DNA of 64,000 nt. It comes from a virus. The notes under the pieces are model-generated. The model worked only from the letters and a program-made list of their open reading frames with translations. It was not told the DNA's origin and did no database searches. Of the stretch, positions 8,079 through 63,129 are shown piece by piece (position 1 is the stretch's first letter; each line of letters opens with the position of its first letter). The position numbers and the translations under genes were made by a program. The stretch lies in the IMG/VR virus record IMGVR_UViG_3300027970_000001, positions 75,211-139,210 of that record. One strand, 5' to 3'.

Positions 8079-8085
8079 GGGCGCC

Positions 8086-8094: not shown

Positions 8095-8097
8095 CGA

Positions 8098-8179
8098 TGC
8101 CGAGGGAGGGAGTCGAACCCTCACGTCCGATGGACACGCCGTCCTAAGCGGCGCGTGTCTGCCATTCCACCACCCCGGC
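8098..8179 (-). tRNA. trnL: tRNA-Leu (anticodon TAG), no encoded CCA
   Basis: Acceptor GCCGGGG/CCTCGGC+A; anticodon arm CGCCG-CTTAGGA-CGGCG; long variable arm; T arm GAGGGTTCGACTCCCTC. Confidence 0.95.
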
Positions 8180-8183
8180 CGCT

Positions 8184-14986: not shown

Positions 14987-15645
14987 CGGTCTGACCGCTT
15001 TAGGTTCTGCTCCCAGAACTCGTACCCCTTGAGGTACATGTCGACAGGCACGCCGTTGACGCCTACCAGGAACTCGGCGGGCACGGCCTTCCAGATGGCC
15101 ACCACGCCACCAGGGCGCGGCGGGTCGTACAGCCCACGCCCGTGCCGGAAAGAGGCCCCCACGGCGCCTCCCCAGCCTTCCCAATCGTGGGGCACATCAA
15201 ACACGACCCATGACGTGTACTTGTTGTAGCGCGCTCCAGGGTCGCTCGGATCGAACGCGACGAAGAACACCAGATCTGGCGCTTCGCTGTATTGGCCCAC
15301 GCCACGGGGTGAGGCGACGAGGCCCTTGGCGATGATCGAGGAGAGCACGTCGGACTCGGACTTCATGCCCTCGGGCAGCTTCAAGATGCTGTGAACCAGC
15401 CTCGTTGCGTTCGACGGCACCGGAGGCAGAAGAGCGTTCTCTTGCTGCGCATCCATGGCGCCTCGGAGCGCATCGATCATCTTGGTGTTGTCGAAAAGCT
15501 CGTCCTCGGTTAGCCCGAAGACGGGAGCGATGCGCTCGATAAGGTCAAGCGACTGCATCAGGTCGCCCTCGCCTGCCTGCCAGCCGGCGAAGATGGAAGC
15601 GAGGGTGTCGCGGGCGTCGATGTCGATGCTTGCCTGATCAGTCAC
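14983..15645 (-). CDS. hypothetical protein, possible ART-like C-terminal domain
   Basis: After VPSN: RLVHS...SIIAKGL...VFF; GTG start coupled to the upstream stop. Confidence 0.55.
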   Translation of the reverse strand: MTDQASIDIDARDTLASIFAGWQAGEGDLMQSLDLIERIAPVFGLTEDELFDNTKMIDALRGAMDAQQENALLPPVPSNATRLVHSILKLPEGMKSESDVLSSIIAKGLVASPRGVGQYSEAPDLVFFVAFDPSDPGARYNKYTSWVVFDVPHDWEGWGGAVGASFRHGRGLYDPPRPGGVVAIWKAVPAEFLVGVNGVPVDMYLKGYEFWEQNLKRSDR

Positions 15646-22400: not shown

Positions 22401-22940
22401 CCCGACGGGCTGTGGGTTGTCTGGGCTCCCATCGAGGGCTCATCTACCGAGTACAAGGGCTTGCCTTCCGAAAAGCTGGAAAGGGTGCTCAGTATCAGTG
22501 CCTACGCTGACATCAACCTTTCAACCCAGGATAAGGCGAACTGGAACTTCTACACCTACGGCTGGAATGGCAAGATCGCGTCGCAATACTCCGGCGCTCC
22601 CGGCACGCCCTCGATGCTCTCGGCGGCCGAAGCTCAGGGCAACGCGATGACGCAGATCTCTGCGGCGATCGGCAAGACTCCACAGGCCGCTCGCATGCCC
22701 AGGGGAGCCTGGCGGTCGTCCGGGGGAGAGCACTTCTTTGGGCACGACGTCGAAGGAGAGAAGAGGGTCTCGCTCGGCGAAGTGGTCCGCGGCAATGACC
22801 GCCGCTGGCTCGCTTACATCTGGGCCGGCGGCTACTCCGATGACAATCAGGAAACCACGTGGAGCGAAGAGTACGACAGCCTGGAAGAGGCCAAGCAAGC
22901 CGTCGAACAGCAGTCGATGAAGCATCCGCTCAGGACCTGA
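19491..22940 (+). CDS. GHKL (MORC/Hsp90-like) ATPase fused to an HExxH metallopeptidase-like domain
   Basis: RELLQNSRDA (N box), DNGVGM (G1), GGFGDAK (G2); IHEVTH; N-terminal KRTSRRPVSRN and MRRN. Confidence 0.85.
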   Translation: MSSSLPMATKRTSRRPVSRNADGGSLAVPPDPAFIERIESVDDHLSTPGQYYTTTGQQAYLVARSMTWHPMVEAGEETYFAEGSVFHWTVLADEKSATSDVLPVELLNEKVQIEQLSDAVSRLGKNAMRRNGDEGGEDWGVTESYFLDKLDAYDRWESAFWRELLQNSRDAGATKIELSSEETTYSDPATGEGLPAVLCVCRDNGVGMDKETLKRAFFTLGGSMKPAGAVGGFGDAKELILTPWYRYEVRTRGLLAIGQHQRLFAPGIRSGEPFVQGVEIRVWMPVHKSTNDSYAVGVLEKSHLIGIRVTVNGQRVSADLIGGDKVREHPITITTFTVSWSERGEGRTQSFAYSDEFYEFTNGLSRKGIAYDTSREQKEVGRMEIWRQPRSKRNGCFVRGSGVFMFEKRVDANIKGAIFVDITAPPRGVFTRKRDALAASSSASGFLNAYLEELAVDPMSALKKQRAERDKERTIYTGSGPLDVRSGEGAAVAEEERARRMAKASKVGADLASRVDLSKSKSKKGGGVELTDQQFDAISKGVKEQLERDQEEADRQQESQGGERGPDLVPLPETFDAVAKNVTFVSHEQLAGALRFAAWKPDLFVYQNLDNWKMPKDFNPLTMKPKYLKLIRLWSELCKYALVRLGMFKPFGVGWIFDTERDESGNEMVLGAGYLREADTDWLLLNPVKIRRTNASYEEYPDYSVESDYYNLSDDASIRRLCASVIHEVTHMQGFGKHDQKYAYALTDNIEIAFGMEKAAKKILTGVNRVVREEVKERKAAKEVESQIPWDALIGKAIMAVRIGHNAGFSYSSPEEISKGKPSVAELVRLLSQGPSKLADPYRAERVINEGERIYSSSDVNPRVFLRLYEALRDKGLLPAVSNEQASQYTKKAFIYGFDLPDPRDRGEVEVPSSVGVYNVTKRTKGGETQWVLREGYSGLRGKEIVSGKLWGGDQLVDRYRYNDHLLAARPDGLWVVWAPIEGSSTEYKGLPSEKLERVLSISAYADINLSTQDKANWNFYTYGWNGKIASQYSGAPGTPSMLSAAEAQGNAMTQISAAIGKTPQAARMPRGAWRSSGGEHFFGHDVEGEKRVSLGEVVRGNDRRWLAYIWAGGYSDDNQETTWSEEYDSLEEAKQAVEQQSMKHPLRT

Positions 22941-25689: not shown

Positions 25690-28041
25690 TCAGACTGGTT
25701 TGTCCCAGCTACTGAACTCGGACCTCAGAACCCCCTCGTACTCGATGATGCCTTCGGGCTGCTCGGCGCGGTTGCGCTGCACGGCCCCCTTTGGCGGCTT
25801 GAACATCTCCCCGTAGACGGCGGCCTTGGCCTCGCTCTCGTCCATCTGCTTGCCTTCGATGGCACCGGCAAACAGCAGAGCCTTGAGCTGAAGCACCTTC
25901 GCCATCTGCTCGTCGATGGTCCCCGCGCCGTCCATGTACGTGACAACGCAGGTGTTTTTGGCTCCCATCCGGTGGATGCGGTCCTCGGCCTGCTCCATCT
26001 TGGCAGGGGTCCAGAGCCTCTCGATGATCAGCATGTCGCTCGCGCGGGTGAGCGTCACTCCGACGGCCATGCCCACCGAGAAGAGCAGCACGTCGAGCCT
26101 GCCCGCCTGGAACATGGCGATGTTGTCGTTGCGCTGCTTCTCGGGCGTCTCACCGGTCACCGACGCCTGCCGGATGATGCGGCGGCGGTCCTTTGCTCGC
26201 TGCTGGTTGACGGCGGTGATGGCCTTCTGAAGCGCCGCGAACGTCTCCTTGTGGTACGCCATCACGACAAGCGGCTTGCCGGGCGAGCTGTCGATGAAGT
26301 TCTCAATCCACTCGGTGCCAGCCTTCACCTTGCCAAGGGCCGACAGGGCCCTCAGCAGGTTGAGCCTGGCCAGTGCGGCGTTCTGCTGCGAGCGCATGGC
26401 CGCACGCGGGCCGCCGTTGGCCAGGACCCATTCGAGGAAGTCCTGGCAGGCGTGCTCGTAGGTCTCGGCGACGTCGTCCGACAGGCTCACGATGACCGTG
26501 CCTCGGACCTTCTCTGGGAAGTCGGGGAGGATGTCCTTGGTGCGCCGGAGCATGTAGGTGCCGTTCAGCTCTTCGTAGAGGGCTGAAAGGCTCTTGGACT
26601 TGGCGACGCGCTTCTCGAACAGTACCGGGTCGTTCCACGCGGTCGGGTTGATCATGTGCAGGAGCGAAAACAGCTCGTTCGGCGTGTTGGTGAACGGCGT
26701 GCCGCTCAGGAGGAACAGGCGTGGAATCCTCATCGCCATGTCGTGGAAGACTTGCGCCCGCTCGCTGCCCCGGGCTTCGAGCTTCTGGGTGCGCATCACC
26801 CGGACGATCTTGAGCGTGGCGAGGATGTGAGCCTCGTCCGCCACGAGCGTCTGGTTCTTGCGCTTCATCAGCCAGTCGGCATGGGAGGCGAGCGACTCGT
26901 AGTTCACGATGACGACGTCGGCGGACTGCGCCTCCTTGCCGGGGACGGCGCTCCCGTCCAGCACCAGCACCGACAGGTCCGGGCGCCACTTGTTCAGCTC
27001 CGCGCGCCAGTTCTGCTTGACCGACTTGGGGCACGCGACGATCGCGGGGGCGTCGATGACCGATGCGGTTGTGATGGTCTTGCCAAGGCCCGGCTGATCG
27101 GCCAACAGGCCCCTGCCTGCCGCATCCATCCAGCGCGCCCCGTGCTCCTGGTGGAGCATCAGGCCCTTGGGCAGCGCCCTGTCAGACAGAAGCTCGCGGG
27201 GCAGCTCGGCGGGGCTGATGGGGCCCCATTGGTCTGGCGTGTACTTCGAGAGTCGCGCCGCGATGGCGGCGGTCGTCTTTGCCGGAGGGGCGACCTCGGC
27301 AGCGGGCAAAAATCCGCCGTCTTCTTCGGCTGCGCGGGTGATCCTATCGACGATCCGGCGAGCGCCCTCGGCTCCAACCTTGAGAGGCTCCTCTCTTGTG
27401 GACACGTACACGCCGCCGTCGAGCCTCACCGAGTCTCCGCTCGGGGCTACCCAGTCGACGGTCCGCTGCTTGGCACCGTCCGAGATCTTCCTTCCCACCG
27501 CCACGCGCGTGACCACGGGGCCAGTTCCAGGGTCTACCTGGCGCGTCTGCTTGGCCGGTGCCGCTGGAGCGGGCATCTCGGGCGGCGGCACGTAGGACAT
27601 GATGCCGTGCTCGATGGTGTCATCGAGGTACGCCAGCACCGACCGGCCGGTTGGCTCCCAGCGCTGAAACTCAGGCACCGACACCACGGCCTGATTGCCG
27701 AACAAGCCGCCGACGACGATGGGGCCGACCTTCTCGACCCAGTCATCGACGCGGAACAGGCGCACCATCTCCTGGCCGCGCCGCCGCGCCTCGGGGAACA
27801 GCTCTCGGTTGGCCTTGGCCGCATCCACGACCCGGTCGGTGATGTTCGCGGAACGGGGAATCATCAAGCCCATGAGCTTGTGATCCCAGGGGGAGTCCGG
27901 GCGGCCCTTCTCGTTCTCAAGGGTGATGAACGCGACGGGGCTGCTGGGCTTTGGCCTGCCGACCGCAACCTCGGCAATGGCCTCCACGCCTTCCAGGTCG
28001 CCTTCAGGCCCGCCGGCGTTCCGTGAAATGATGCCTCTCAT
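25690..28041 (-). CDS. SNF2/SWI2-family (SMARCAL1-like) helicase/ATPase
   Basis: LLADQPGLGKT, CPKSVKQNW, DEAH, LSGTP, MLRRTK, GVTLT, QAEDRIHRMG. Confidence 0.9.
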   Translation of the reverse strand: MRGIISRNAGGPEGDLEGVEAIAEVAVGRPKPSSPVAFITLENEKGRPDSPWDHKLMGLMIPRSANITDRVVDAAKANRELFPEARRRGQEMVRLFRVDDWVEKVGPIVVGGLFGNQAVVSVPEFQRWEPTGRSVLAYLDDTIEHGIMSYVPPPEMPAPAAPAKQTRQVDPGTGPVVTRVAVGRKISDGAKQRTVDWVAPSGDSVRLDGGVYVSTREEPLKVGAEGARRIVDRITRAAEEDGGFLPAAEVAPPAKTTAAIAARLSKYTPDQWGPISPAELPRELLSDRALPKGLMLHQEHGARWMDAAGRGLLADQPGLGKTITTASVIDAPAIVACPKSVKQNWRAELNKWRPDLSVLVLDGSAVPGKEAQSADVVIVNYESLASHADWLMKRKNQTLVADEAHILATLKIVRVMRTQKLEARGSERAQVFHDMAMRIPRLFLLSGTPFTNTPNELFSLLHMINPTAWNDPVLFEKRVAKSKSLSALYEELNGTYMLRRTKDILPDFPEKVRGTVIVSLSDDVAETYEHACQDFLEWVLANGGPRAAMRSQQNAALARLNLLRALSALGKVKAGTEWIENFIDSSPGKPLVVMAYHKETFAALQKAITAVNQQRAKDRRRIIRQASVTGETPEKQRNDNIAMFQAGRLDVLLFSVGMAVGVTLTRASDMLIIERLWTPAKMEQAEDRIHRMGAKNTCVVTYMDGAGTIDEQMAKVLQLKALLFAGAIEGKQMDESEAKAAVYGEMFKPPKGAVQRNRAEQPEGIIEYEGVLRSEFSSWDKPV

Positions 28042-28051
28042 CGAACTCACC

Positions 28052-28900
28052 TTACCCGAGGCCGATGCTTTCGGCGATGTCGGCGTCAGCCGTGTGGCGA
28101 GTCTTGCCGCCAACGATGAAGCTGTAGACGCGGGCGAAGCCCCACTGCCCCTGCGTCGCCCCGGGCCTGTGTCCGGTGCTCCAGGCTGCAAGTCCGCGGT
28201 TGTAGACCTTCTTCAGGGCACGCTGGTACCCGGCAAGCGTTGCGTCCGGCGCCACGTCCTCGTAACTCGCGCTGGCAATCGCAGGCAGGCCCCCTTTGAC
28301 GTCGCCGTAGCGACGCTTGAACTCGGCCGTGTAGGAGCTGGTCCGGGTCTTGGAGCCAGCGTCCGTCTTGAATGGACGGAACGCGCTCTTGGGGCGACGA
28401 GGGCCGAGCTTGCGGCTCTCCTTGGCGCGGCTGGTGATTTCACGGCGGCGCGAGGTGCGCTTGGCTCCCTTGAGTGAGCCGAGGTACTTCGACGGCACGC
28501 GGCCGTTGCGCCTGGGGCGATCTCTCTCTTCGTCGCGCCTCTTGGCTTCCAGGTAGGCGTGGTGAGCCTTGATCTGGGCAGGGGTGACCTTGTCGTACAC
28601 AGGCTTGAACTGAAGCTCGACCGCCCGCCTCTCCTCCTCGATTACGAACGGCAGATGGCCAAGCCCGCGAAGCTCTCGCTCGGCATCGGCAAGCTGAGCC
28701 TCTGCTTTCTCAGGGTCCAGCTTGAACGCCTTGGTGTTCATCACCGCGCCCACCGCTGCCGAGAACGCCCCCCAGGGGTCCCGCTTGAGCTTCTTGTACG
28801 GGCGATGACCCTGGTTTCTGGCGAGGCCGCCTCCGGCTAGTCGCTCTAGCGCGAAGGCGGAAAATAGGAGGCCAAGCCCCAGTCCGATTCCTCTGAGCAT
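28052..28900 (-). CDS. N-anchored basic protein with DUF5824-like C-terminal domain
   Basis: VYNRGLAAWSTGHRPGATQGQWGFARVYSF...TADAD; LARN and PRRN boundaries. Confidence 0.6.
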   Translation of the reverse strand: MLRGIGLGLGLLFSAFALERLAGGGLARNQGHRPYKKLKRDPWGAFSAAVGAVMNTKAFKLDPEKAEAQLADAERELRGLGHLPFVIEEERRAVELQFKPVYDKVTPAQIKAHHAYLEAKRRDEERDRPRRNGRVPSKYLGSLKGAKRTSRRREITSRAKESRKLGPRRPKSAFRPFKTDAGSKTRTSSYTAEFKRRYGDVKGGLPAIASASYEDVAPDATLAGYQRALKKVYNRGLAAWSTGHRPGATQGQWGFARVYSFIVGGKTRHTADADIAESIGLG

Positions 28901-31504: not shown

Positions 31505-32518
31505 TTATGCTGCTTCTTCACCAAGCGCCCTCTTGAGCGCCTGCTCGACCTTGTACACGACCCGCCCGCCGCTGCCGAATCTACGAGCGACCACCGGCCA
31601 CTCGCCGTTCCAGTCAATGACGACGGCCTCGCTCTTGCGGCCCTCTTCCTGGCCGTCAATCATCGCGGCGGTCATGTCCCCCTTCGGGATGAGGTTGTCT
31701 CCAACGGCGAGGTAAACGCCGACCGGAAGCTTCTCAAGGCGGCGGCGAGCGCCACCCGGAAGCCGCTGCGGAAGCTCAGCCTCGCGAGCCTCAACCACGG
31801 CTTTGAGGACGCGCTCGACCGACTGGGAGTCGGGGATGCAGGGGACGCCGTCTGGGCCTACCTCGGCGACGATCCGCTCGACGACGGGAGCAGGCTCGAC
31901 GGGCGCCTGGGCGCTCAGGCGGCGCGGCTCGATGACCTCGGGCACCTCGGGCCACACCTGAACTCCGCGGGCGAGCGGCTGCGTGTGGGCCATCACGGGC
32001 GGCGTGCGCGGGATGGGCGAGGGCCATGTCATCCCAGCGGGCGCCATCGACGGCCGGAAGAACGGCGCGTGCTCGGTCCTCATCGTGAGAGCCACGCGGC
32101 GGCGCAGGTCGTTCTCGATGGTGTTGACCGTGACGTTGACCGCGTGGAGTGCTTCACGGTGCCGGCGCTGAAGCTCGTGCAGGTCACGGGCGGCCCACAT
32201 CACCATGGGCTCCGCAAGCTCAGAGAGAAGCTCCGGCGCGATGACCATGGCCTCTGTCAATAGCGCGTGGGTCACCGCACGCCTGAACGCAGGCATGTCC
32301 GGGTGATCGTCAGCAACGATGCCGCACGACTGGGCAAGCTGCTGCGTCGCCTCGGGCGCTTCGATCTCGCTCGGCACCACAGCGAAGAACACGCCAGCGT
32401 CAAACCCGTAGATGACGTCGAGGAACGAGAGGCCGCGCCCGGTGTACTCAAGCACGTGGGCACCGCCGCGGTCACGGCGGGTGCGGATGTCGAGGCGCGA
32501 AAGGATCTTGGGCTTCAT
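31505..32518 (-). CDS. hypothetical protein; C-terminal domain shared with 45323-46096
   Basis: LEKLPVGVY...VIDWNGEWPVVARRFGSGGRVVYKVE. Confidence 0.7.
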   Translation of the reverse strand: MKPKILSRLDIRTRRDRGGAHVLEYTGRGLSFLDVIYGFDAGVFFAVVPSEIEAPEATQQLAQSCGIVADDHPDMPAFRRAVTHALLTEAMVIAPELLSELAEPMVMWAARDLHELQRRHREALHAVNVTVNTIENDLRRRVALTMRTEHAPFFRPSMAPAGMTWPSPIPRTPPVMAHTQPLARGVQVWPEVPEVIEPRRLSAQAPVEPAPVVERIVAEVGPDGVPCIPDSQSVERVLKAVVEAREAELPQRLPGGARRRLEKLPVGVYLAVGDNLIPKGDMTAAMIDGQEEGRKSEAVVIDWNGEWPVVARRFGSGGRVVYKVEQALKRALGEEAA

Positions 32519-32532
32519 AGGAGCGCTCCGTT

Positions 32533-32653
32533 TCGACGGCCGGAAGCGAGGCTGCCGCTCGCTGCGAACAGGTGGGGCACACCTGAATGAAGGCACAGCT
32601 CTTTGTTGAGCAGGCGTCCATTCAAGAGCTGCATCCCCGCTTCCGGCCGTCGA
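32533..32653 (-). ncRNA. candidate structured intergenic RNA
   Basis: Perfect 16-bp closing helix plus internal hairpins; strand inferred from flanking genes. Confidence 0.4.
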
Positions 32654-32685: not shown

Positions 32686-33372
32686 TCAGCCGTCCGAAGA
32701 CAGGCGCGACAGAACCTTGTCGAGCACGTGCTCTCCGACGACGTACCCCGCGATCTCGGCGGAGAAAGAGGTCGTCTCGTAGGGCTGCGGCTTCAAGATC
32801 TGAACCGTCATGGTGATGTTCTGCCCCGGCCTCGCGTAATACGCGAAGTTCTCAAGGCCGATCTGCGACGACCCGGGGAACGGGTAGAAGCTGCCCTGGC
32901 CAGGCGTCGGAGCCGAAGTGTTTTGAAGGGTGCCGTCGGGGTCTCCGAAGCCGGTCAGCGCGAGACGCTGCCCCTGGGCGGTGATATTGGTGTTGAAGTC
33001 GGTCATCCCTCGGTTCCCGACGTTCGTCTGGAATCCGAAGTAGCCGGCTGCACGGGCACGGGACACCGCGATCTTGTCGCCAGGGGCGATGTTGGTCGCG
33101 GCGTACACGCTGAACGCCGTGTTCCTGATGATGATCGCCTGCCGAGCCGGCGTCTGAATGTTGGCAACCACCACAGGGTACGGATACGGAGGGAACCCGG
33201 CCTTCTGAATCGGCTTCGGGTAGTCCGCAAAGTACGCCCGCTGAAAAAAGATCAGCGACCGCGACGGCAGAAACTGAAGGAACCCGTCTCGGATGGATAC
33301 GGGCTGCGACCCGCCACCCATCCCGGACATGGGAAGGGTGGAGGGCACCTGCGAAGTCGTGATGGGCCGCAT
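32686..33372 (-). CDS. beta-rich putative minor capsid/jelly-roll protein
   Basis: Alternating beta-strand pattern, terminal SAEIAGYVV, MSGMG near the N-terminus; next to the capsid-like genes. Confidence 0.5.
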   Translation of the reverse strand: MRPITTSQVPSTLPMSGMGGGSQPVSIRDGFLQFLPSRSLIFFQRAYFADYPKPIQKAGFPPYPYPVVVANIQTPARQAIIIRNTAFSVYAATNIAPGDKIAVSRARAAGYFGFQTNVGNRGMTDFNTNITAQGQRLALTGFGDPDGTLQNTSAPTPGQGSFYPFPGSSQIGLENFAYYARPGQNITMTVQILKPQPYETTSFSAEIAGYVVGEHVLDKVLSRLSSDG

Positions 33373-33387
33373 AGACCCTCCAGTCTA

Positions 33388-34383
33388 TCAGACCGCCGGG
33401 CTCTGCGCCTGGAGGATCTTGTAGCCGAGCATGGTGAAGTAGAGGGTTCCACCAAGCGCCACAACCTGGCGCCCGATGTCGTCAGGAGGGGTGACCGGAG
33501 TGATGAACGGATCCGGCGGCGGAACCGCGTTGCCCTCCGCAAACCCGTTCGGAAGTGCCGCGTAGTTCAGCTCGGCAAACCCAACATCACGCGTCAGAGT
33601 TGCGCTGAACCGAATGGAGCTTCCGCGCTCGAAGAAGTCCGACACGGGCAGGTAGAGCGGACGGTCGTTCTCGGTGAAGAGATACCGGCTCGGGATCGGA
33701 ATCTGGTTCTGGCGCAGGCGGTCGACGCCCTCGTCGGCAATCTCGAAGGTGAAGTCGACGGTACCGGGGCGGAAGGTGTTGACCAGCGCGGCGTCGTCGA
33801 GCGCAGCGGCGCCGTTCGCCGTGTCACCGACGCGAGCGCCGATGTAAGCGCCCTGAAACGCATCCGCGGTGGAAGCCACCGGGCGCCAGCGCCCAGAGAG
33901 AGGCGTCTGCACCTCAGTGCCCGCCGCCGGATCGTCAGGACGACCACTCTCCTCGTCGCCGTAGGGGCCGATCGAGAAGGTCTTCAGCAGGAACGCCGAC
34001 AGGTACGTCGTGCAGACGAACGGACCGTCCTGGCTGATGGTCTTCACGTCGCTCAACCGCGAGCCAGCAATCGTCACGCTCGGCGACGTGGGGCCCGGGA
34101 TGTTGATCGCGAACTGCATGAAGTATGGCACCCGCTTGCCAGGGATGTCCTCGATGTACCGGATGCGAGCGGCGGCCTTCTTGAGGGCGTCGCGCATCTT
34201 GCGCAACTCCATCTTGTCGTCTTCGCGCTCGGACGCCATCGCCCGGTACCGCTTGACCAGCGACTGAAGCTGAGCCTCGATGCGCTCGTGCTGGTTGGCC
34301 ATCTGCGACAGATAGCGACGCGTGTTCTCGTCCAACTCCATAACCTGCTCCTCCTGCGCTCCTCGCGCCATTGGTGCCGACAA
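33388..34383 (-). CDS. coiled coil + beta-rich putative capsid (jelly-roll) protein
   Basis: TISQDGPFV...PLYLPVSDFFERGSSIRF...LYFTMLGYKI. Confidence 0.5.
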   Translation of the reverse strand: MSAPMARGAQEEQVMELDENTRRYLSQMANQHERIEAQLQSLVKRYRAMASEREDDKMELRKMRDALKKAAARIRYIEDIPGKRVPYFMQFAINIPGPTSPSVTIAGSRLSDVKTISQDGPFVCTTYLSAFLLKTFSIGPYGDEESGRPDDPAAGTEVQTPLSGRWRPVASTADAFQGAYIGARVGDTANGAAALDDAALVNTFRPGTVDFTFEIADEGVDRLRQNQIPIPSRYLFTENDRPLYLPVSDFFERGSSIRFSATLTRDVGFAELNYAALPNGFAEGNAVPPPDPFITPVTPPDDIGRQVVALGGTLYFTMLGYKILQAQSPAV

Positions 34384-34463
34384 GCTCCACTGCTGTCAGC
34401 GGAGGCGACAGTAGCATGGCTGAGACAGGCGTACAACAGTCGAGCTTGACATGCCCTGCGCAG

Positions 34464-35117
34464 CTATGCGTCTGACGGGGCAGGGATATCGGACGGGGCC
34501 CACGCCATCGAGAACTCCCGATCTCGGAACATCTCCGCGATGCCGGTGATTTGCCTCAGACGAAGCACCTCGTCCGGGTCCATCCCCAGCTCTTTCGAGA
34601 TCTTCGCCTCGTCCCACCCCCGCTTCACCAACTCCGCCACGATGCTCGACATCTGCTCGACGCCATGCTTGCCTCGCGCGCGGTTGTGCCTGATGGTCGA
34701 TGCCATCCGGTCATGCACGCCAACCCTGTCTGACCGAATCTGAACAATCGGCAGGTAGCCGCCCAGTTTGTCTTTGATCGGCCCCTTCTCTTTGCCAACG
34801 CACGACCGGTGGAAGCCGTCGACCACCTCGAAGCCGGTCGCCTCCTTGTTCACGACCACAGGCTGCGTGTATCCGTCTGATTCCACGGACAGGCGAAGCA
34901 GGTCCATCTCCGGTGCGGCGACGCTGTTCGGATTATACGCGTTCGCCACAACCTCGGTCCCACGCACCCAAAGCACACAATCGACCGGCTCGGCAGCGAA
35001 AGGAGAGTGCTCCGAGAGGGCCTGCCTGATCTGATTGATGGCGTCGATGCGATCTGCCGTCGGCAGCTCACCGAGCTTCGCAAACAGCTCCCGGGCCTGA
35101 GCTACAAGATGTTCCAT
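34464..35117 (-). CDS. ibrB: IbrB/YbdM-like ParB-family protein
   Basis: ANAYNPNSVA..EM.LL..S...DGYTQPVV...VVDGFHR...RMASTIRHNRARGKH. Confidence 0.85.
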   Translation of the reverse strand: MEHLVAQARELFAKLGELPTADRIDAINQIRQALSEHSPFAAEPVDCVLWVRGTEVVANAYNPNSVAAPEMDLLRLSVESDGYTQPVVVNKEATGFEVVDGFHRSCVGKEKGPIKDKLGGYLPIVQIRSDRVGVHDRMASTIRHNRARGKHGVEQMSSIVAELVKRGWDEAKISKELGMDPDEVLRLRQITGIAEMFRDREFSMAWAPSDIPAPSDA

Positions 35118-36316
35118 TCCACCCTCTTCCGCTTCATGCGGTCCATGTACGTGTCGTAGGCGCCCGACTTGTGCTGAGCGAATCCAAGGCCCTTGCACCA
35201 CCAGTCGTTGCGCAAGATCGTCTTGCATACCCGTCGCCACGAGGGCGCCTTGCGGCTCGCTTCTTCCGCAGGAGGCGCCGTGTCAGGGATGCCTTCGGGG
35301 TACCCACGCGCCTCGTACCACCTGATGAAAACAGAGATTTTGCTGCGGTAGTGCTCGGATGCGTGAGGAGGCAGGGACTCCAGCAGTGACATGGCGAAGT
35401 CTTTGTAGGACACGCACGACTCGGGCAGGCTGACAGCCCCGACGCCGTTGACGTTTCCCTTCTCCTTCACGTACAGCGCGCCTCCGTTGACGCCAGCGAC
35501 ACGAGCCACGACGCGCGCCCAAGTTGCAGGCTCCATGATGTGGTAGAGCCACAGGCCCTTGCGCTGGTCGTCGCCGTAGGGCTGGCAGATGCGCATCTGG
35601 TGCGGCGTCAGGCCAGCGGCGAACATCAGGTCGTAGACCTTGTTGTACGGGGCTCCGGTGACCGCGTGGTAGTGCCAGATGTCGTCAACGTGCCAGTCAT
35701 AGATCGGATACGCGTTGTAGGCGTTCTCAGACAGCCTCGTCGTCCAGCACAGGCCCTCGTGCGTCTCCTTTTCATCAGAGGCGATGGTTCTGAAACGGTT
35801 GATTGACTCGTCCGTTCGGATGCCGACGAAACACGCCGTGTGCTTTCCATGCGCGTACCACTCGCCAAAATCAGCGATCAGGTCTTCAAACTCCATCCCC
35901 CGCTTGAACCAGGGGAAGGTGCCCTCGTCCGTGATTGCGACACTCGGCGGCTGCCTGACCCACTTGTCCTTGGCAGACGGATCCCAGCACGTCCACTTCG
36001 GCTCGAACACGCTCACCCCGTTGCGCAGGCCAATGGGCAGCGCAAGCCAGTACGGATCGACGATGTCGGCGTTCTTCTCGTAGCAGGACAAGACGAAGTC
36101 GACGGTGGCGGTGTACTGAGCTTCCAGGTCGATGAACAGCAAGCCGACCTTGCGCGACCTGGCCCGCGCCTCTTCCAGCACGAGGGCGAGCATGACCGTC
36201 GAGTCCTTGCCGCCAGAAAACGAGACGTAGATGCGCTCGAAGTCGTCGAATACCCTTGAAATCCTGCTCTTGGCGGCCGTCAGCACGTCAACATCAAGCT
36301 GAGCCTTCTTCTTCAA
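35102..36316 (-). CDS. ibrA: IbrA/YbdN-like PAPS-reductase-family protein (DUF3440)
   Basis: YVSFSGGKDS, IDLEAQY, VGIRTDES..R, YPIYDW, MRICQPYGDDQRKGL, SWRRVCK.IL.ND.WCKGL. Confidence 0.9.
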   Translation of the reverse strand: MKKKAQLDVDVLTAAKSRISRVFDDFERIYVSFSGGKDSTVMLALVLEEARARSRKVGLLFIDLEAQYTATVDFVLSCYEKNADIVDPYWLALPIGLRNGVSVFEPKWTCWDPSAKDKWVRQPPSVAITDEGTFPWFKRGMEFEDLIADFGEWYAHGKHTACFVGIRTDESINRFRTIASDEKETHEGLCWTTRLSENAYNAYPIYDWHVDDIWHYHAVTGAPYNKVYDLMFAAGLTPHQMRICQPYGDDQRKGLWLYHIMEPATWARVVARVAGVNGGALYVKEKGNVNGVGAVSLPESCVSYKDFAMSLLESLPPHASEHYRSKISVFIRWYEARGYPEGIPDTAPPAEEASRKAPSWRRVCKTILRNDWWCKGLGFAQHKSGAYDTYMDRMKRKRVEWNIL

Positions 36317-37947
36317 GAGGGCGCCCCCTGAGACATCTCAAGGAAGAGCAGCGACGCGTCGGTCGCCGTGAGATAGTCCGCGGTCTTGATGCGGTGCAGG
36401 AGCCCGTGGATGGCCCGCTTGTCGGCGCCTGGTGCGTAGCTTGCGCAAGCGAGGTCTGCTTCGACGCCCTTGACGATCAGGTATGGCCGCACGGAGCGCA
36501 GGAAATCTGGCACATGAGCCTGGAGGATGCCGAAGGAGTGGAACGGCCGCGCCTCTCCGACGGGTGGCCGCGTGGTCACAGTCGTGCAGATGGAGGGCCC
36601 GATGACCAGCCGCATGTCTTCGAGGGCATCGCGGTCTGCGGCGCCGAACACGACGGCCGTCTGGAAATACTCCGACTTGCCCCTGGCCTCCCTGAGCATG
36701 ACGATGCTTCCATCTCCGTCGAGCATTCCAGCGAGCCACGCGCGGTGAGCCGACGACGGCTCGTGGGGCACCGCGGGGCGTCCGGCGATCTCTGCCGCCC
36801 TGGATCTTGCTTCGGAGTCGCCCTTCTTGATCTGGCTGGAGAGGCGTTGGATCTCGAAGTCAGCTTCCGTGGCTCGGTAGTGCGCAGCGTGAGCAGACCT
36901 GTTTGCGATCTCCAGGGCCAAGTACGCCTCCAGCCGCTTGCCGCGAAGCAAGGGGGCCAGGGCTCCAAGAAGCAGGCGTACCTTGTCCTTCCCAGACACG
37001 GTAATGGAGTAGAACTCCCTCTGCGACATCCGTTCGCTCGCTTTTGGAGCGCGGACGTTCATCGTCGGCGTGGATCCGATGATGCCGGTGACGATCTGCG
37101 AGACGCGATCCATCGCAGGGCGGTTCACCAGGCCCACGGTCACGGTCACGATGACGTTGTTCGGACGGCTGGTATGCCGACGGATGTGGAAGCACCCCTC
37201 GGCATCCATCAATCCAGCGAACCATGCCATGTCGGCGTCGGTGTCCCCCATGGGGGAAGGACGTAACACCGAAGGTTGCAAACCGCAAGGGGCGTCTGTT
37301 TGCCGGGGGACCTTTCGCGGCTCACGAAGTGGCGGCCGGAACCCGGTTGCGAGCAACTGACGCCACTTGAAGGAATCGAGCCACTCGCCAAGGCGGACGA
37401 CATCCGACTGATGGTTTACCGACACGTTCCATGTGCCGGACTTTTTCCCAAACCGCATTGTGGCAGTAATGCCTTGCGATTCGATCTGCTGCTTGACCCA
37501 TGTCGACAGCACGGTGTCTTTTTGCGAGAAGACAAACAATCCCCAGCGTTTTCCTGGGTATCTGGCGTCTTTTCTCACCGTGAAGCAGCCATCCGTCTCG
37601 ACAAGTCCGCGAAGGAACTGACGACGGAACTCTGGCGAGTCGTTCACCCAGGCCGGCGGAACCATCGAACCGTCAGGAGACCTTTTGGAGGAGACCCCAA
37701 ACACATCATGGACGTTTCTGACGTTGATGTAAATCTCGAAGAACGGTGTTTTTGTGGTCCTTTTCTGGCACTCGTTGAACCTGCCGAAGACGACCGTGAA
37801 CAGGCGTTTTATCTCAGCCCTCCACGCCGGATACTTGTCGCCGGAGCACATGGCGACGCGGTACGTGGACGCGCGCGGCACCGGGGTGATGTAGCCATCG
37901 CCGTAGATTGCCCCGAGCAGAAGGGCCAAGTCGGCCGATGCAATCAT
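36313..37947 (-). mobile_element. free-standing LAGLIDADG homing endonuclease with four motifs
   Basis: LLGAIYGDG, LRGLVETDG, FAGLMDAEG, LAGMLDGDG; locally more AT-rich codons. Confidence 0.85.
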
Positions 37948-37988
37948 GCCGCGCACGCTACAAGCGATGCGGCGAGAGGTCAACGCGG

Positions 37989-38027
37989 CAAAAGCAAAGC
38001 GCCCCCTCGGTTGCCCGAGGAGGCGCT
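37989..38027 (-). terminator. intrinsic terminator after the putative major capsid gene
   Basis: AGCGCCTCCTCGG-GCAA-CCGAGGGGGCGCT followed by TTGCTTTT. Confidence 0.8.
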
Positions 38028-38063
38028 CTCTGACAGCGCTGTTAGGCGGCTGCCGCCGACGAC

Positions 38064-38858
38064 TCAGAGGACGTCGCGCGAGTGGATGCCGTCGATGAGG
38101 TACTTGATGTCCTTCTCGATGTCATCCGAGCCCTGGACCGACACGCCGGTGCCGGCGCCGTAGCCCACGTCGGTCGTCGGCGCGTTCTGGCCGATCGAGC
38201 CGGCGGGGCCGTTGTCCGGCACGAGGCCGTTGAGCTGCTCGATGATCGACGCGCCGACCGTCTGCCCGATGGGCGACAGGATCGCGACGACCTGGAAGCC
38301 CTGGCGGGGCGGGATCAGGACCGGACGGGCCAGCCGCATGAGCGCCGACGACGTCGGAACGCCGTTGTTCGCGCGGGGCAGGCGGGTGTCCGCGAAGAAG
38401 CCGTCCAGGCCACCAGCGAACGGCGTGTACGCCGTGAAGGTGGTGAGCTGGGGCTTGTCACCGGCCGTGAGCTGCCAGAAGATCTGGTTCTCGGCCTGGT
38501 GGTACAGCTTGTGGACGCGCAGGACGCGGTCGGGGACCGTGCCGTTGACCGCCGAAGCGAGCGGCGCCGACGCGTTCGCGGCGCCGATGTTGTACTGCGC
38601 TTCCAGGTTGACCCGGAAGTACGTCCAGACGCGGACCGCGAGGGTCACGAAGGTCTGGTCGGAGGGGAAGAACCCGCCGGTGGTCAGGTTCGAGATGGAG
38701 ACATCCGCACCCTGACGGGTGAAGAGCTGCATCCGGCCCTGCATCGCGCCGAAGAGACCGGCGTTGCGGCTGCGGAGGTTCTGATTGCCATCCACGCGGA
38801 TGAGCGAATCGTAGAAGGGCTGATGAACGCGCTCTCGGGTACCAACGATCTTCGGCAT
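38064..38858 (-). CDS. putative major capsid protein (jelly-roll type)
   Basis: QPFYDSL...LF...SNLTTGGFFPSDQTFVTLAVRV...LARPVLIPPRQGFQV...YLIDG; strongly biased codons, own terminator, structured leader. Confidence 0.55.
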   Translation of the reverse strand: MPKIVGTRERVHQPFYDSLIRVDGNQNLRSRNAGLFGAMQGRMQLFTRQGADVSISNLTTGGFFPSDQTFVTLAVRVWTYFRVNLEAQYNIGAANASAPLASAVNGTVPDRVLRVHKLYHQAENQIFWQLTAGDKPQLTTFTAYTPFAGGLDGFFADTRLPRANNGVPTSSALMRLARPVLIPPRQGFQVVAILSPIGQTVGASIIEQLNGLVPDNGPAGSIGQNAPTTDVGYGAGTGVSVQGSDDIEKDIKYLIDGIHSRDVL

Positions 38859-39051
38859 TGTCGTGTCTCTCTCAATGTCCTCGGTGAAGACGCCTAAACA
38901 GGTTTATTCCGTCACCGAGTTAGCTCGTCCGCTGGGCGAGCACCCCGCTAGTTATCGTCACCCAGCCTCACCATGAGGAGAGTGACTGCGACCCGATTCC
39001 CCGTAGCGGTACAGGGTTTTCGCCGGCCAAGCTATCGGGTCGCAGAGCTTT

Positions 39052-39750
39052 TCAAAGTCCCGGGGTCGTAAACAGGTTCCGGGAGAAACTGCCGCCAGTC
39101 CAAAGCGGCTCTTGCGTGAACGGGATCGAGACCTTCTTGAACTCGGGCCAGTTCGTGGCAGGGACCGCGACGTCCGTCGGGATCACCGTGCTGAAAGCTT
39201 CGGGCTGGCTCTCCAGACCGAACGCCGAGACCTCATCGTTGCTACCAAGTCCCAGCATGCCCTTGTACGGAGCACCATAGTGACTGATATCATACCCGAT
39301 GCCAAGTCCCAAACTGCTCGGGCCGTAATATTGTCCAACGCCGCTCGTCGCGGGGGGCGAAACGGGGGCCGGCGTCGTGAGCGACGCGTTGACCTCGGCC
39401 TGCGCCACCTTGGTGAACTGCTGGAGGAGCGGAAGCGCCGCCGCCATCGTCGAGCCCACCAGGATTGCTTGAAGCGACTCCGCCACAAGGGACTCCTTGG
39501 ACGTGTCGGCGAACCAGAGGGCCGTCAGCGAGGCCGCAACGGCCGCCGTGGTCACACCCGCCTGCTCGCTCTCACCCACAACCGGAAACTTGCTCTCGGC
39601 AACAAGGCCACCGGCCCACTTGGTGGCCAGGTAGGCAACGCTGCCCATGCTCACAGGCAGGAGAACCTCGCTGATGAGATCCTTGCCGAACACCGGGTTC
39701 CGACGCATCTCGCGACGCGCGCGGCGAATGTTACGACGATTGGACTTCAT
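39052..39750 (-). CDS. membrane protein with basic N-terminus; paralog of the 39782-42454 C-terminal part
   Basis: MKSNRR...MRRNP, hydrophobic helices, GVGQYY, STVIPTDVA.P...G.FS..LF...GL. Confidence 0.75.
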   Translation of the reverse strand: MKSNRRNIRRARREMRRNPVFGKDLISEVLLPVSMGSVAYLATKWAGGLVAESKFPVVGESEQAGVTTAAVAASLTALWFADTSKESLVAESLQAILVGSTMAAALPLLQQFTKVAQAEVNASLTTPAPVSPPATSGVGQYYGPSSLGLGIGYDISHYGAPYKGMLGLGSNDEVSAFGLESQPEAFSTVIPTDVAVPATNWPEFKKVSIPFTQEPLWTGGSFSRNLFTTPGL

Positions 39751-39781: not shown

Positions 39782-42454
39782 TCAGAGGCCGCTCATGCCC
39801 GAGAAGATGGTCCCCGAGAAGAGACCCGACTCGTAGCCGCGCGACTCGGGCGTGACGATCGAGGTCTTGACCTTGCGGTCGTAGGGGATCGTCTTGGACA
39901 CGGGCTCAGCGATGTCCGTCGGGATGACGGTCGACTCGAAGCCCACGGGGTTCCGGTTGTACATGGCCTCAAGCGACGCGTCCGCCTCGCCCTCGCCATA
40001 CGCCACCGGAAGGACCTCGCCCATGCCGGCGGCGGCCTCGTTGAAGCCAGCGGCGGCTTCCATCGCGTCCATCAGGCCATCGGCGCCGGCCGCGGCGTAG
40101 AACGTCCCCATGCCGCTCATCGGCTGATTCACGTACTCGCCGATGCCCGCCGTCGCGTACTCGGTCCCCAGGCCGCTCATCGGCTGGTTGACGTACTCGC
40201 CCACGCCCGCCGCAGCGTACATCGTGCCGAGGCCGCTCATCGGCTGGTTGACGTACTCGCCCACGCCCGCCGCAGCGTACATCGTGCCGAGGCCGTTCAT
40301 CGGCTGATTCACGTACTCGCCGAAGCCGCTCATCGGCTGGTTGACGTACTCGCCCAATCCGGCGAGCGACTGCGCCCACGGCTGCGTCGGAGCAAGGCGC
40401 GCGAGGGCCATGCCCGCGAGCGACGCGCCCATGCCGGCCAGCGAGTAGCCGACGACCTGGCGGAACATCGCCGCGTTCTCGTCGGTGCCCTTGATCATCG
40501 GAAGCGCCGCCGCAGTGGCCGCGATGCCGACCGCGTTGGTCGCCATGCGGGTCTTCCACGCCGCATCCGCCGCCACGCCGCGATCAAGCAGGTTGCGGAC
40601 GCCCTCGGACGAGGCCGCCGCGCCAGCGAGCACGCGAGCGATGATGACGCCCGAAAGCACGCCCACGCCCGGGACGAGGATCCCGCTCACCACCGGCGTG
40701 CCGGCGATGGCAAGAGCGTTCCGGCGAAGCCGACGGTGGCCCTTGCGGCTGCTGCGACGATTCATGACGACGTACTTCGGGTTCTTCTTCACGGCCTTCT
40801 TGCTCGTACGCTTGGAGGTCTTCTTGCGCTTCGGCGCCATCAGGCGCGAGGCGAGCCAGCCGCGGCGCTCGCCAGCGGGCATGCTGTGCAGGGCCTGGGC
40901 CGCGCCGCCGAACTTGAACCGCCGGATCGCCGCGTGCGGCAGGACCTGCGGAGACATCAGGACCGGGTAGCCGCCCTTGCCGTGCTTGTACTCGATGACC
41001 TGGTGAAGCTTGCCGGACGCTCGCAGCTTGCCGCTCTTGGGAGCGCGGCTCACGCGCTGCGCCAGCACGTTCCGGCGGAGGCGACGGCTGCTCTTGCGGC
41101 TGTGCCGACGGCTGCTCTTGCGGCTGTGCCGACGGCTGCTCTTGCGGCTGTGCTTCCGCGACGTGCGGCGGCGGTTCATCACCACGTACTTCGGGTTCTT
41201 CTTCACGGCCTTCTTGCTCGTCTTCTTCGCCGAGGTCTTCTTGGCGGCGGGGGCCTGCTTGAACCTTCCGCTCATCACCAGGGGGAAGCGGGGGCCGTGC
41301 CCGAACAGGCGCGTCACGCGCGACATCGCCGGGATCTTGCCGCTGCGGAGCAGCTTCACGATCGAGGCTTCCTGACCGCGGCGGCGGCGGCCGAAAAAGC
41401 CGACCTTGCGGCTGGACTTCTTGCTGGACTTCTTGCTGGACTTCTTTGCCATGGACTTACTCTTGCTGGAGGTCTTCTTCGCCTTGGCCTTCGCCTTCGG
41501 CTTCGCCTTGCTCGTCTTGGCCTTGGCCTTCACCGTCGGCTTCGGCTTGCTCGTCTTCGCCTTGGCCTTCGCCTTCGGCTTGCTCGTCTTCGCCTTGGCC
41601 TTGGCCTTGGCCTTCGGCTTGCTGGTCTTGGGCTTGGCGGTGCGAGGGGCGCGAACGCGCTCCTTGATCTCCACTTCCACTTCCTCGACCTCAAGAGGTG
41701 CCGCCGACCGACGGCTCGACTTGACGGCCGCCCGAGCCGCAGCCATGCGCTGCTTGCTGGTCTTGGCGCGGGGGCCGGAGGGCGAGCGATCGGCGGCCTC
41801 TAGCGCGGCCTGGCGAGCCCTTTCAGCCGGGCCCTCGTTTCCGTAGGCCATCGCACCAAAGCGAGTCGTCGCCTTGGACGGGTGAACGTAAGTGCCGCGA
41901 CTCTCGGACGCCTTGCGTCGACCGGGGGAAGCGGCGGAAGCGCCCGCCGATCGCGCGTTCTGTTGCATGGCGCGACGCAGCGCCTCGATGTTGTACGCCA
42001 TACCGTCATCTCCTCCGTTGCCCACAAGACGCTCAGGGTGAATCGGCTTGCCGAGCACCGTGCCCCGCTCGTCGACCGAATAGAGCCGAGCCCCCTTGAA
42101 CTTGTCTGCGTTCTTCTGCCGCCACTTCGCGGCCGAGCCGACGCCTTGGTACGCGGGCGACACGTGCCGGTGCCCCATGCCGCGCCCCTCGATCCATTGG
42201 AACGGGTTCTGGCGCGGCTTGCCGGGGTTGATGACGGTCATGTGCGTCACGCCGCCGACATTGGGCTCCATGTTGTTGGACCGCTCGTACTTGCGAGCGG
42301 ACGACTTGGAGCTTTTGTTGTAGACTAGGGCCATTTTGGACGCACTTCGCCTGCTCGACCCTGTTCGCAGGCGAGGCGTGTGCCCCGGGTCTTCGAGCAC
42401 AGGTTTTACCCTGCTCGCCTGCTTGGTGTCAAGCTTGATTCTGAACTTTTTCAT
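39782..42454 (-). CDS. giant basic core/membrane polyprotein (H1-like repeats + TM domain + GEY repeats)
   Basis: AKAKAKTSKPK, KKSS and SRKSSRRH repeats; duplicated KKAVKKNPKYVVMNRR; ATG overlaps the upstream TGA. Confidence 0.8.
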   Translation of the reverse strand: MKKFRIKLDTKQASRVKPVLEDPGHTPRLRTGSSRRSASKMALVYNKSSKSSARKYERSNNMEPNVGGVTHMTVINPGKPRQNPFQWIEGRGMGHRHVSPAYQGVGSAAKWRQKNADKFKGARLYSVDERGTVLGKPIHPERLVGNGGDDGMAYNIEALRRAMQQNARSAGASAASPGRRKASESRGTYVHPSKATTRFGAMAYGNEGPAERARQAALEAADRSPSGPRAKTSKQRMAAARAAVKSSRRSAAPLEVEEVEVEIKERVRAPRTAKPKTSKPKAKAKAKAKTSKPKAKAKAKTSKPKPTVKAKAKTSKAKPKAKAKAKKTSSKSKSMAKKSSKKSSKKSSRKVGFFGRRRRGQEASIVKLLRSGKIPAMSRVTRLFGHGPRFPLVMSGRFKQAPAAKKTSAKKTSKKAVKKNPKYVVMNRRRTSRKHSRKSSRRHSRKSSRRHSRKSSRRLRRNVLAQRVSRAPKSGKLRASGKLHQVIEYKHGKGGYPVLMSPQVLPHAAIRRFKFGGAAQALHSMPAGERRGWLASRLMAPKRKKTSKRTSKKAVKKNPKYVVMNRRSSRKGHRRLRRNALAIAGTPVVSGILVPGVGVLSGVIIARVLAGAAASSEGVRNLLDRGVAADAAWKTRMATNAVGIAATAAALPMIKGTDENAAMFRQVVGYSLAGMGASLAGMALARLAPTQPWAQSLAGLGEYVNQPMSGFGEYVNQPMNGLGTMYAAAGVGEYVNQPMSGLGTMYAAAGVGEYVNQPMSGLGTEYATAGIGEYVNQPMSGMGTFYAAAGADGLMDAMEAAAGFNEAAAGMGEVLPVAYGEGEADASLEAMYNRNPVGFESTVIPTDIAEPVSKTIPYDRKVKTSIVTPESRGYESGLFSGTIFSGMSGL
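40086..40358 (-). repeat. 60-bp tandem coding repeat (GEYVNQPMSGLGTMYAAAGV) x4 plus a partial unit
   Basis: 60-nt periodicity visible on consecutive sequence lines. Confidence 0.9.
41077..41640 (-). repeat. basic low-complexity repeats (24-bp SRKSSRRH x3; KKSS; AKAKAKTSKPK)
   Basis: Direct inspection. Confidence 0.8.
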
Positions 42455-42684
42455 CCAGCGCGCTTCGTCTTGCCGGCGGAGATGGCGGCGGCCTGGTTTT
42501 CGATGGTGGCGCACGCTTGGTTCAGCTCGCTGAACCGCTCCATCATGGCGACGCGTGCGGCTTCGAGGGCCGCCTCAAGAAGAGCTGTGGTTTCATCCAC
42601 GTGCATCGGAACCGGGGCACCGGGGCGGTACGAAGACCGGATCTGATTCAACAAAGCATCTCGTCTTGAAAGATTGGAGCGCAT
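42451..42684 (-). CDS. small helical hypothetical protein
   Basis: Its stop codon overlaps the ATG of the core protein. Confidence 0.5.
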   Translation of the reverse strand: MRSNLSRRDALLNQIRSSYRPGAPVPMHVDETTALLEAALEAARVAMMERFSELNQACATIENQAAAISAGKTKRAG

Positions 42685-42705: not shown

Positions 42706-43023
42706 TCACTTGTCTTCGAGTCGGGCTACGGCCGTGGCCAAGTCTGCAACGGCGCGGCTGAGCCTGTTCTGAGCGGACAGGGACTCCTCTTGCATCTGCA
42801 TCAGAGTCACGATCGTCTTCTGGGTATCCTCGACGCGAGCATCGTTGGCCCTGACGAGGTCTCTGCGAAGGCTGGCGATCTCAAAGTTCATTTCGGCGCG
42901 GAGCTTGTCCTCGCGCTTGTATTGGTTGTTGATTGTCCACCAGTAGAGCAAGGCCAGGGCAACAAGGGATGCCCCGACTGGCCCGTCACTCATGAGGATG
43001 CCCAACGCCTGATCGATGATCAT
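42706..43023 (-). CDS. TM + coiled-coil protein (holin-like architecture)
   Basis: N-terminal hydrophobic helix followed by heptads. Confidence 0.55.
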   Translation of the reverse strand: MIIDQALGILMSDGPVGASLVALALLYWWTINNQYKREDKLRAEMNFEIASLRRDLVRANDARVEDTQKTIVTLMQMQEESLSAQNRLSRAVADLATAVARLEDK

Positions 43024-43766
43024 CCGTCGATTCCATCCTTGATGACGCGCAGCTTGCCGCCGGCCATCACGCAGAGGAACCCAACGGACCCATCAGGCTG
43101 AGCCTCGGGGGAGTAGACGGCGATCATGTCGCCCTTGGGGGAGCAGAACAGGTAGGTGTTACGCGGGTTGCACTCGTAGACCTCGCCGTCGTCGTACCGG
43201 CGCACGAAGAAGCCCAGGCACTTGCCGAGCATCGTCATCGCCTTGGGGTAGGACACGGGCGGGCCGCTCCGGTGAACCACAAGGTCGGGAGCCAAAACCC
43301 CGCCGACCTCGTTCTTGGCTAGCTGACGCACCTCGGCAGTTGCGGAGCGCGCAGGCTCGTACATCCGAACGCCGTGGCCAGGCTTGTACTCCTGGTTTTC
43401 GATCGGGTCGTGGACGTGCTTGTAGTCGACGTCCTCGCCGTCCTTGTACCACTTGTCCGTGCGGTACATGACCGACACGCAGTCGCCCACGCAGATCAGC
43501 TCCTTAGGAAGGTCGTGCCGGATCTTGATGAGGCGAAGGGGGTCTTTGGAGTGGAAAGTGTGGTACTTGTCCATCGCCTTCATCAGGTCTGCCGCCGCGT
43601 CCGCCGGCATCTGATCAGGATCGACAGAGGCGCCAAAATCCGTGTTCATGGCGCCGTCGAAGTCCTCGACCTCGTCTCCCTCGGAGACGCGGCCGTTCGG
43701 GCGCATGGATAGGGTTCCGTCGTCGAGCGGATCGAAAAAGTCAGCGCGTCGCATTTCGGTCTCCAA
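43020..43766 (-). CDS. hypothetical protein (MRPN boundary)
   Basis: Coding bias; coupled to neighbours. Confidence 0.7.
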   Translation of the reverse strand: METEMRRADFFDPLDDGTLSMRPNGRVSEGDEVEDFDGAMNTDFGASVDPDQMPADAAADLMKAMDKYHTFHSKDPLRLIKIRHDLPKELICVGDCVSVMYRTDKWYKDGEDVDYKHVHDPIENQEYKPGHGVRMYEPARSATAEVRQLAKNEVGGVLAPDLVVHRSGPPVSYPKAMTMLGKCLGFFVRRYDDGEVYECNPRNTYLFCSPKGDMIAVYSPEAQPDGSVGFLCVMAGGKLRVIKDGIDG

Positions 43767-63100: not shown

Positions 63101-63129
63101 TTGACAGCCTCCCGGGGACGCCCTATAGT
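63101..63129 (+). promoter_or_regulatory. consensus sigma70-type promoter
   Basis: TTGACA-17 nt-TATAGT. Confidence 0.75.

Follow-up and report, generated by a model that had tools for sequence, protein, structure and literature searches.

What kind of particle encloses a viral genome of about 139 kb when no head, tail, or packaging genes can be detected in its complete relatives? The question is raised by a 64,000-nucleotide (nt) stretch of DNA, positions 75,211 to 139,210 of IMG/VR record IMGVR_UViG_3300027970_000001 (here called the window), and above all by three open reading frames (ORFs) that an earlier reading of the letters alone (the sequence-only reading) had taken for capsid-like genes of a large tailless, membrane-containing virus. 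All three ORFs were present on the minus strand as described (38064-38858, 33388-34383, and 32686-33372), and the larger claim was partly supported, with predicted folds and the absence of tailed-phage families speaking for it and the proposed common motif falling away. The explanation that we favor, with moderate confidence, is a tailless bacterial virus with an internal membrane and a single jelly-roll shell that works like the archaeal virus SPV1 and is 7 to 15 times larger. No particle of this lineage has been seen; the evidence consists of two predicted folds, the conservation and synteny of the genes concerned, signs of expression, and searches of complete relatives in which head, tail, and packaging genes went undetected. 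From these we infer the capsid role, the internal membrane, packaging without a motor, and the host. The genes at the center of the argument are as follows.

38064..38858, minus strand: 264-amino-acid (aa) single jelly-roll protein by predicted fold, candidate major (hexon-type) capsid protein
33388..34341, minus strand: 317-aa jelly-roll protein by predicted fold, candidate second major capsid protein (MCP), penton base, or sub-capsomer protein
32686..33372, minus strand: beta-rich 228-aa protein whose gene always comes immediately after the 317-aa gene (position conserved in eight loci)

A conserved 264-aa protein is a predicted single jelly roll

An AlphaFold2 model of the 264-aa protein, built with 47 sequences, reached a predicted local distance difference test (pLDDT) score of 77.7 and a predicted template modeling (pTM) score of 0.80, and consisted of a beta sandwich plus a single long helix, which predicts a single jelly-roll protein. 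Structure prediction gave the jelly-roll folds that the sequence-only reading had anticipated for this and the 317-aa protein, with the qualification that no Foldseek match of the 264-aa model was significant. At the top of that list stood PRD1 P3, SPV1, P23-77 VP17, and polyomavirus VP1, with SPV1 scoring above every sphaerolipovirus chain; the same list included a tail-fiber domain, phage cement proteins, PHM, and nucleoplasmins.

Relatives of the 264-aa protein filled more than 250 database clusters at 66 to 97% identity, all metagenomic and unnamed. An exhaustive HMMER search returned 77 representatives, the complete ones mostly 180 to 265 aa long, so the family is wider than the window's lineage. 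No Pfam or PHROG family matched it, and a PDB profile search with alignments of the 264-, 317-, and 228-aa families found no capsid chain at E values up to 10. No deposited phage or plasmid matched: tblastn searches with the 264- and 317-aa proteins against 50,697 phage records gave nothing even at E values up to 5, and a search of 72,556 plasmids, compared with the 264-aa protein only, gave nothing at E values up to 1e-3.

The gene also looks highly expressed, in keeping with the hallmarks first pointed out from the sequence. Its GC content at third codon positions (GC3), 0.92, was the highest among window ORFs of at least 100 aa, and it is set apart from its neighbors by a long spacer and a hairpin terminator.

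38859..39051, minus strand: 193 nt preceding the 264-aa gene, leader or promoter, read from the sequence
37989..38029, minus strand: intrinsic terminator of the 264-aa gene, with a GC-rich hairpin of 15 bp ahead of a U-rich run

The terminator lies about 26 nt past the stop codon and has a minimum free energy of -42.4 kcal/mol (z of -3.46 versus shuffles); no sigma-70 consensus was found in the 193-nt leader. This stretch recurs almost verbatim in many lake-water metagenomes. Contigs from three RNA libraries (three studies) covered the gene at approximately 88 to 99% identity, so relatives are included, and one 1170-nt contig (run X18) took in the gene together with its entire leader (exactly 38064-39057). 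Other contigs of this kind covered parts of the neighboring 232- and 910-aa genes; in runs X18 and X19 the 317-aa gene was present at trace level, and the 228-aa gene and the insert between the 264- and 317-aa genes were uncovered, where missing cover proves nothing. Because RNA libraries can carry DNA and their contigs cannot rank genes, this coverage is a weak hint of high transcription.

A second predicted jelly roll and a 228-aa neighbor

The ORF of the second gene stays open to position 34383 (331 aa, 33388-34383). Its product is placed at 317 aa, starting with the ATG at 34341, because homologs are 306 to 333 aa long and the protein's own database entry has 317 aa. The model was weaker than that of the 264-aa protein (pLDDT 64) and showed a 60-residue N-terminal helix ahead of a sandwich at approximately residues 67 to 317, a predicted long helix plus jelly roll, with five unnamed BFVD matches at E values of 1e-3 or below. 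Both modeled proteins hold one sandwich, not two, and both end in a long C-terminal strand; PRD1 P3 and other double jelly-roll proteins were only weak partial structural matches.

More than 200 database clusters contained relatives of the 317-aa protein (63 to 88% identity, all metagenomic and unnamed). The 228-aa protein was more variable, at 31 to 94% identity across the eight loci, and neither had a Pfam or PHROG match. The sequence-only reading had seen one beta-strand pattern running through the 264-, 331-, and 228-aa proteins. Comparison of the three family alignments by hhalign gave probabilities of 0.1 to 0.3%, no more than chance, so the shared-motif argument for paralogy was dropped; the common end motif is a four-residue resemblance. 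Complex prediction for the 264-aa protein with residues 60 to 317 of the 317-aa protein scored 0.00, which is evidence neither way.

Gene order is fixed around an insertion site

In eight loci the genes follow one order: 248-, 910-, 232-, and 264-aa genes, an insert, then the 317- and 228-aa genes, usually with a 363-aa gene after them. The members of this block that flank or interrupt the capsid-like genes are listed below.

43020..43766, minus strand: conserved acidic protein of 248 aa that marks the block's upstream edge (46 to 98% identity in eight loci; no family match)
39782..42514, minus strand: 910-aa protamine/H1-like protein, candidate membrane-anchored DNA-condensing core protein (translation and scan of composition and transmembrane [TM] segments)
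39052..39750, minus strand: 232-aa hydrophobic protein with an Arg-rich N terminus (translation; conserved position)
34464..37983, minus strand: variable insert between the 264- and 317-aa genes (Pfam and PHROG matches)
34464-35240, minus strand: ParB-like gene (Pfam/PHROG)
35102-36316, minus strand: PAPS-reductase/DUF3440 gene (Pfam/PHROG)
36313-37983, minus strand: LAGLIDADG homing endonuclease, 556 aa (Pfam/PHROG)
31505..32596, minus strand: conserved 363-aa protein that has a single TM segment and is encoded after the 228-aa gene (no Pfam/PHROG match)

The 264- and 331-aa genes are thus not contiguous, three genes intervening between them. In relatives the same gap held nothing, a LAGLIDADG gene alone, LAGLIDADG plus PAPS-reductase plus ParB genes, or other small genes, and a distant 252-aa homolog (L029, 32% identity) had a GIY-YIG endonuclease on the same side. 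Judged by its changing gene content, the gap is an insertion hot spot (the window, L002, L003, L006, and L029). Homing endonucleases beside the 264-aa gene in several relatives, including the distant one, fit a highly conserved gene. The surrounding region, described earlier as a virion block, was free of visible tailed-phage genes as stated, but it is not purely structural, with ParB-like, PAPS-reductase-like, and LAGLIDADG genes inside it.

The genome is large and has near-complete relatives

Most of the window's length is 61 to 69% GC, and nearly every long, high-GC3 ORF lies on the minus strand. The earlier claim of a genome above 64 kb was borne out: a 139-kb contig on record encodes the window's own 317-aa protein, and the 264-aa family occurs on seven IMG/VR contigs, five of which are 153 to 298 kb and rated 90 to 100% complete. 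One IMG/VR relative, G001, was examined at its full length of 159,872 bp, and its 43.7- to 71.3-kb region is syntenic with the window. Its recorded "direct terminal repeat" is a 127-bp overlap of its ends, so the assembly closes as a circle; the repeat is probably an artifact of circular assembly rather than genuinely terminal.

A Pfam scan of 132 ORFs in G001 identified enzymes of nucleotide metabolism (thymidylate synthase and NDK), helicases and a primase (UvrD, SNF2, and AEP primase), families of phage replication modules (Sipho_Gp157, GP88, and DUF669), a tyrosine integrase, MoxR-type AAA and VWA proteins, and methyltransferases. Cell-wall or lysis-type enzymes among the relatives comprised an M23 peptidase and an amidase, both found in G001 by Pfam, and a muramidase. 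Because peptidoglycan hydrolases are encoded, the host would be a bacterium. Contigs with the 264-aa gene were binned into metagenome-assembled genomes (MAGs) of Phycisphaeraceae, Planctomycetota, Deltaproteobacteria, and Acidobacteriota, which is consistent with a bacterial host, although binning of viral contigs is unreliable.

Tailed-phage and packaging genes were not detected

Models of packaging and head proteins were searched against all six frames of five relatives, and each model also matched some of 14 named control genomes. The terminase models Terminase_6N, TerL_ATPase, and Terminase_6C (PF03237, PF03354, and PF17289) had no match, extreme divergence being possible; Phage_portal (PF04860) and Phage_capsid (PF05065) had none either, in families that are often too diverged for hidden Markov models (HMMs). 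Pox_A32 (PF04665) was likewise unmatched, and FtsK_SpoIIIE (PF01580) gave one weak match. That match, in relative G005, was rejected as a packaging ATPase since it is an SNF2 helicase homologous to the product of window positions 25690-28191. The sequence-only reading had proposed looking beyond the window for an A32/FtsK-type ATPase versus a terminase or portal, and neither was found in the five relatives, an absence of A32, FtsK, and terminase that rests on HMM searches.

Family scans agreed with its statement that portal, terminase, and tail genes are missing. Of the window ORFs compared with Pfam and PHROGs, none fell into a family of terminases, portals, HK97 capsids, or tail proteins; Pfam assigned none of the scanned G001 ORFs to terminase, portal, capsid, sheath, tube, baseplate, or tape-measure families; and the large ORFs of both matched no PHROG for heads, tails, or packaging. 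A search of G001 for Walker A motifs found only MoxR, UvrD, SNF2, and a 1,121-aa orphan P-loop protein (G001 5668-9033; L009). This orphan is present in all relatives at 31 to 36% identity, and no other conserved NTPase of these genomes has an unclear role. As a candidate for the missing packaging ATPase it was rejected, as a weak Pfam ResIII match and its ESM Atlas neighbors point toward a ResIII/DEAD superfamily 2 helicase.

Candidate core and membrane genes suggest an assembly route

Of special interest for packaging is the 910-aa gene, which is kept just upstream of the capsid-like genes in all eight loci. Its product carries 184 Lys and Arg residues in H1/protamine-like basic repeats, followed by a TM segment and then about five short repeats containing M-S-G-L-G; its final 40 or so residues resemble the C terminus of the 232-aa neighbor. 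The M-S-G-L-G units also resemble adenain-type cleavage sites. An adenain-like maturation protease, which these repeats had suggested, was rejected after the Peptidase_C5 and C48 models matched nothing in the five relatives. Membrane proteins are present around these genes as the sequence-only reading had held, at a lower count than its 15 or so: a strict hydropathy scan of 28 to 62 kb found TM segments in 9 of 33 called ORFs, several other proteins falling narrowly below the threshold.

These observations can be combined into a proposed mechanism. The window would be part of the roughly 139-kb genome of an uncultured bacterial virus from fresh water, with a particle unlike that of tailed phages. 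Its 264-aa single jelly-roll shell protein would be made in bulk from its own transcription unit and would probably form hexagonal capsomers, and the 317-aa jelly-roll and 228-aa proteins may be further parts of the shell, as a second capsomer, a vertex protein, or a protein linking shell and membrane. Rather than being pumped into a preformed head, the DNA would be condensed by the protamine-like, membrane-anchored 910-aa protein, and shell and membrane would assemble around the condensed DNA, as in SPV1. A broader proposal, which we put forward tentatively, is that such viruses are widespread in freshwater and soil, infect bacteria that possibly belong to Planctomycetota, and combine circular genomes of 140 to 300 kb with a membrane covered by a single jelly-roll shell, protamine-condensed DNA, and no motor. 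No published description of such viruses was found in the literature.

Further genes in the window

Positions 58813-61293 encode an 826-aa coiled-coil protein, rich in Glu and Arg and containing a Pro-Glu repeat and a poly-Gln run, that is conserved in five of five complete relatives. It could be a scaffold. A role as a tape measure of capsid size is not supported, because the open frames of its homologs (775 to 965 aa) do not track genome sizes of 153 to 298 kb. The sole large plus-strand gene (19491-22940) encodes a 1,149-aa protein with a weak HATPase_c_3 (GHKL/MORC-like) match and a G001 homolog at 34% identity. At 13025-15184, 8549-10006, and 6537-8078 lie genes for a polyvalent protein that combines GNAT with two ART-PolyVal domains, for a PcfJ-like protein, and for one resembling GP88, families typical of proteins that phages or conjugative elements deliver with DNA. 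GC content in the last 2 kb (62400-64000) rises to 73.5%, with ORFs unusually GC-high at codon positions 1 and 2, and this end may be of low complexity or carry another kind of gene.

Alternative explanations

A highly divergent tailed phage (Caudoviricetes), with HK97 capsid, portal, terminase, and tail proteins beyond the reach of Pfam and PHROGs and with jelly rolls serving as decoration, cement, or fiber proteins, would account for the replication genes, since Sipho_Gp157, GP88, and DUF669 are typical of such phages, and for a size of 150 to 300 kb, which is normal for large members. Many of the large ORFs are orphans, the 826-aa coiled-coil protein could serve as a scaffold or tape measure, and jelly-roll cement and tail-fiber proteins (KHP40, Pam1, and 7-7-1) were among the structural matches. 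However, a terminase large subunit is usually detectable, and none was matched in six frames of the five relatives with controls positive; PHROG scans of large ORFs lacked head, tail, and packaging families, and the P-loop scan showed no terminase-like Walker A protein. The most conserved and best-expressed gene, moreover, encodes the 264-aa jelly roll, which is atypical for a decoration protein. We regard a tailed phage as unlikely.

Two other explanations retain the jelly rolls in different roles. In one, the 264- and 317-aa proteins form mixed pseudo-hexamers of a Helvetiavirae-type capsid with two MCPs (as in P23-77, SH1, and HHIV-2), the 228-aa protein is the penton, and the ATPase has escaped detection. 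This is a variant of the tailless SPV1-like virus favored here, with another assembly route, and we judge it improbable: the A32/FtsK-type ATPase of that lineage was not found in the five relatives, and SPV1 outscores every sphaerolipovirus chain for the 264-aa model. The other supposes a large, nonviral, plasmid-like mobile element whose jelly rolls are envelope proteins or nucleoplasmin-like chaperones for Arg/Lys-rich proteins. The P-loop scan revealed no conjugation ATPases or other P-loop transfer proteins for such an element, lysis-type enzymes (M23, amidase, and muramidase) are encoded, homing endonucleases sit beside the conserved gene, and that gene is monocistronic, strongly terminated, and highest in GC3, as expected of a mass-produced structural protein; this explanation appears very unlikely.

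Comparison with known virus groups

To our knowledge, no described tailless, membrane-containing virus of a bacterium or archaeon has a genome above approximately 44 kb, and prokaryotic virus genomes of at least 100 kb are attributed solely to tailed phages, whose DNA is pumped by a terminase. If the tailless, SPV1-like explanation is true, this size limit on tailless prokaryotic viruses would be removed, the group would be the largest of its kind by a factor of 3 to 7, and it would probably merit a new order or higher rank. It would also be an abundant unannotated group, with hundreds of protein clusters from lake, sediment, and soil, missed by searches for capsid, portal, and terminase markers.

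Tailed jumbo phages resemble this lineage in the size of their genomes, in having replication and nucleotide-metabolism genes of phage type, and in carrying homing endonucleases and lysis enzymes, but differ in having the terminase, portal, HK97 capsid, sheath, and other tail families that went undetected in the window and its complete relatives. The double jelly-roll viruses (Bamfordvirae/Tectiliviricetes) build on a double jelly-roll MCP; of the ORFs here, the two that were folded, for the 264- and 317-aa proteins, each show one sandwich. Helvetiavirae and Sphaerolipoviridae (P23-77 VP16/VP17, SH1, HHIV-2, and HCIV-1; SSIP-1) have two vertical single jelly-roll MCPs, to which the two predicted jelly rolls encoded here by neighboring conserved genes may correspond. 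Those viruses have genomes of 17 to 44 kb and an FtsK/HerA-type packaging ATPase, for which no counterpart was found in the five relatives.

The simplest model for all these observations is the design of SPV1 (PMC8459092), which has no tail, a shell of single jelly rolls, a membrane inside it, and a genome condensed by protein. The likeness to Portogloboviridae (SPV1 VP4/VP10, PDB 6OJ0) lies in the single jelly-roll major capsid candidate, predicted here. A second single jelly-roll shell protein, the penton, belongs to that architecture too, and the 317-aa protein may be such a component; TM segments in at least 9 ORFs of the 28- to 62-kb block are indirect evidence for an internal membrane. 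The window's 264-, 317-, and 228-aa families have no sequence homology to VP4 or VP10, and the matched SPV1 chain has 178 aa rather than 264 or 317. SPV1 has a 20-kb circular double-stranded DNA genome, lacks the extensive replication and nucleotide-metabolism genes encoded by the window's lineage, and infects a hyperthermophilic archaeon (Sulfolobales), whereas the genome here is about 139 kb, with relatives of 153 to 298 kb, and peptidoglycan hydrolases and MAG bins point to bacteria. Because sequence homology is lacking and both host domain and genome size differ, this is not a member of the Portogloboviridae. What the two may have in common is the route to a packaged genome: SPV1 has a nucleoprotein core and no packaging ATPase, and here a protamine-like 910-aa gene adjoins the capsid-like genes while such an ATPase is unmatched by HMMs. 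If that correspondence is true, SPV1-type assembly without a motor, known from one archaeal family, would extend to bacteria and to large genomes.

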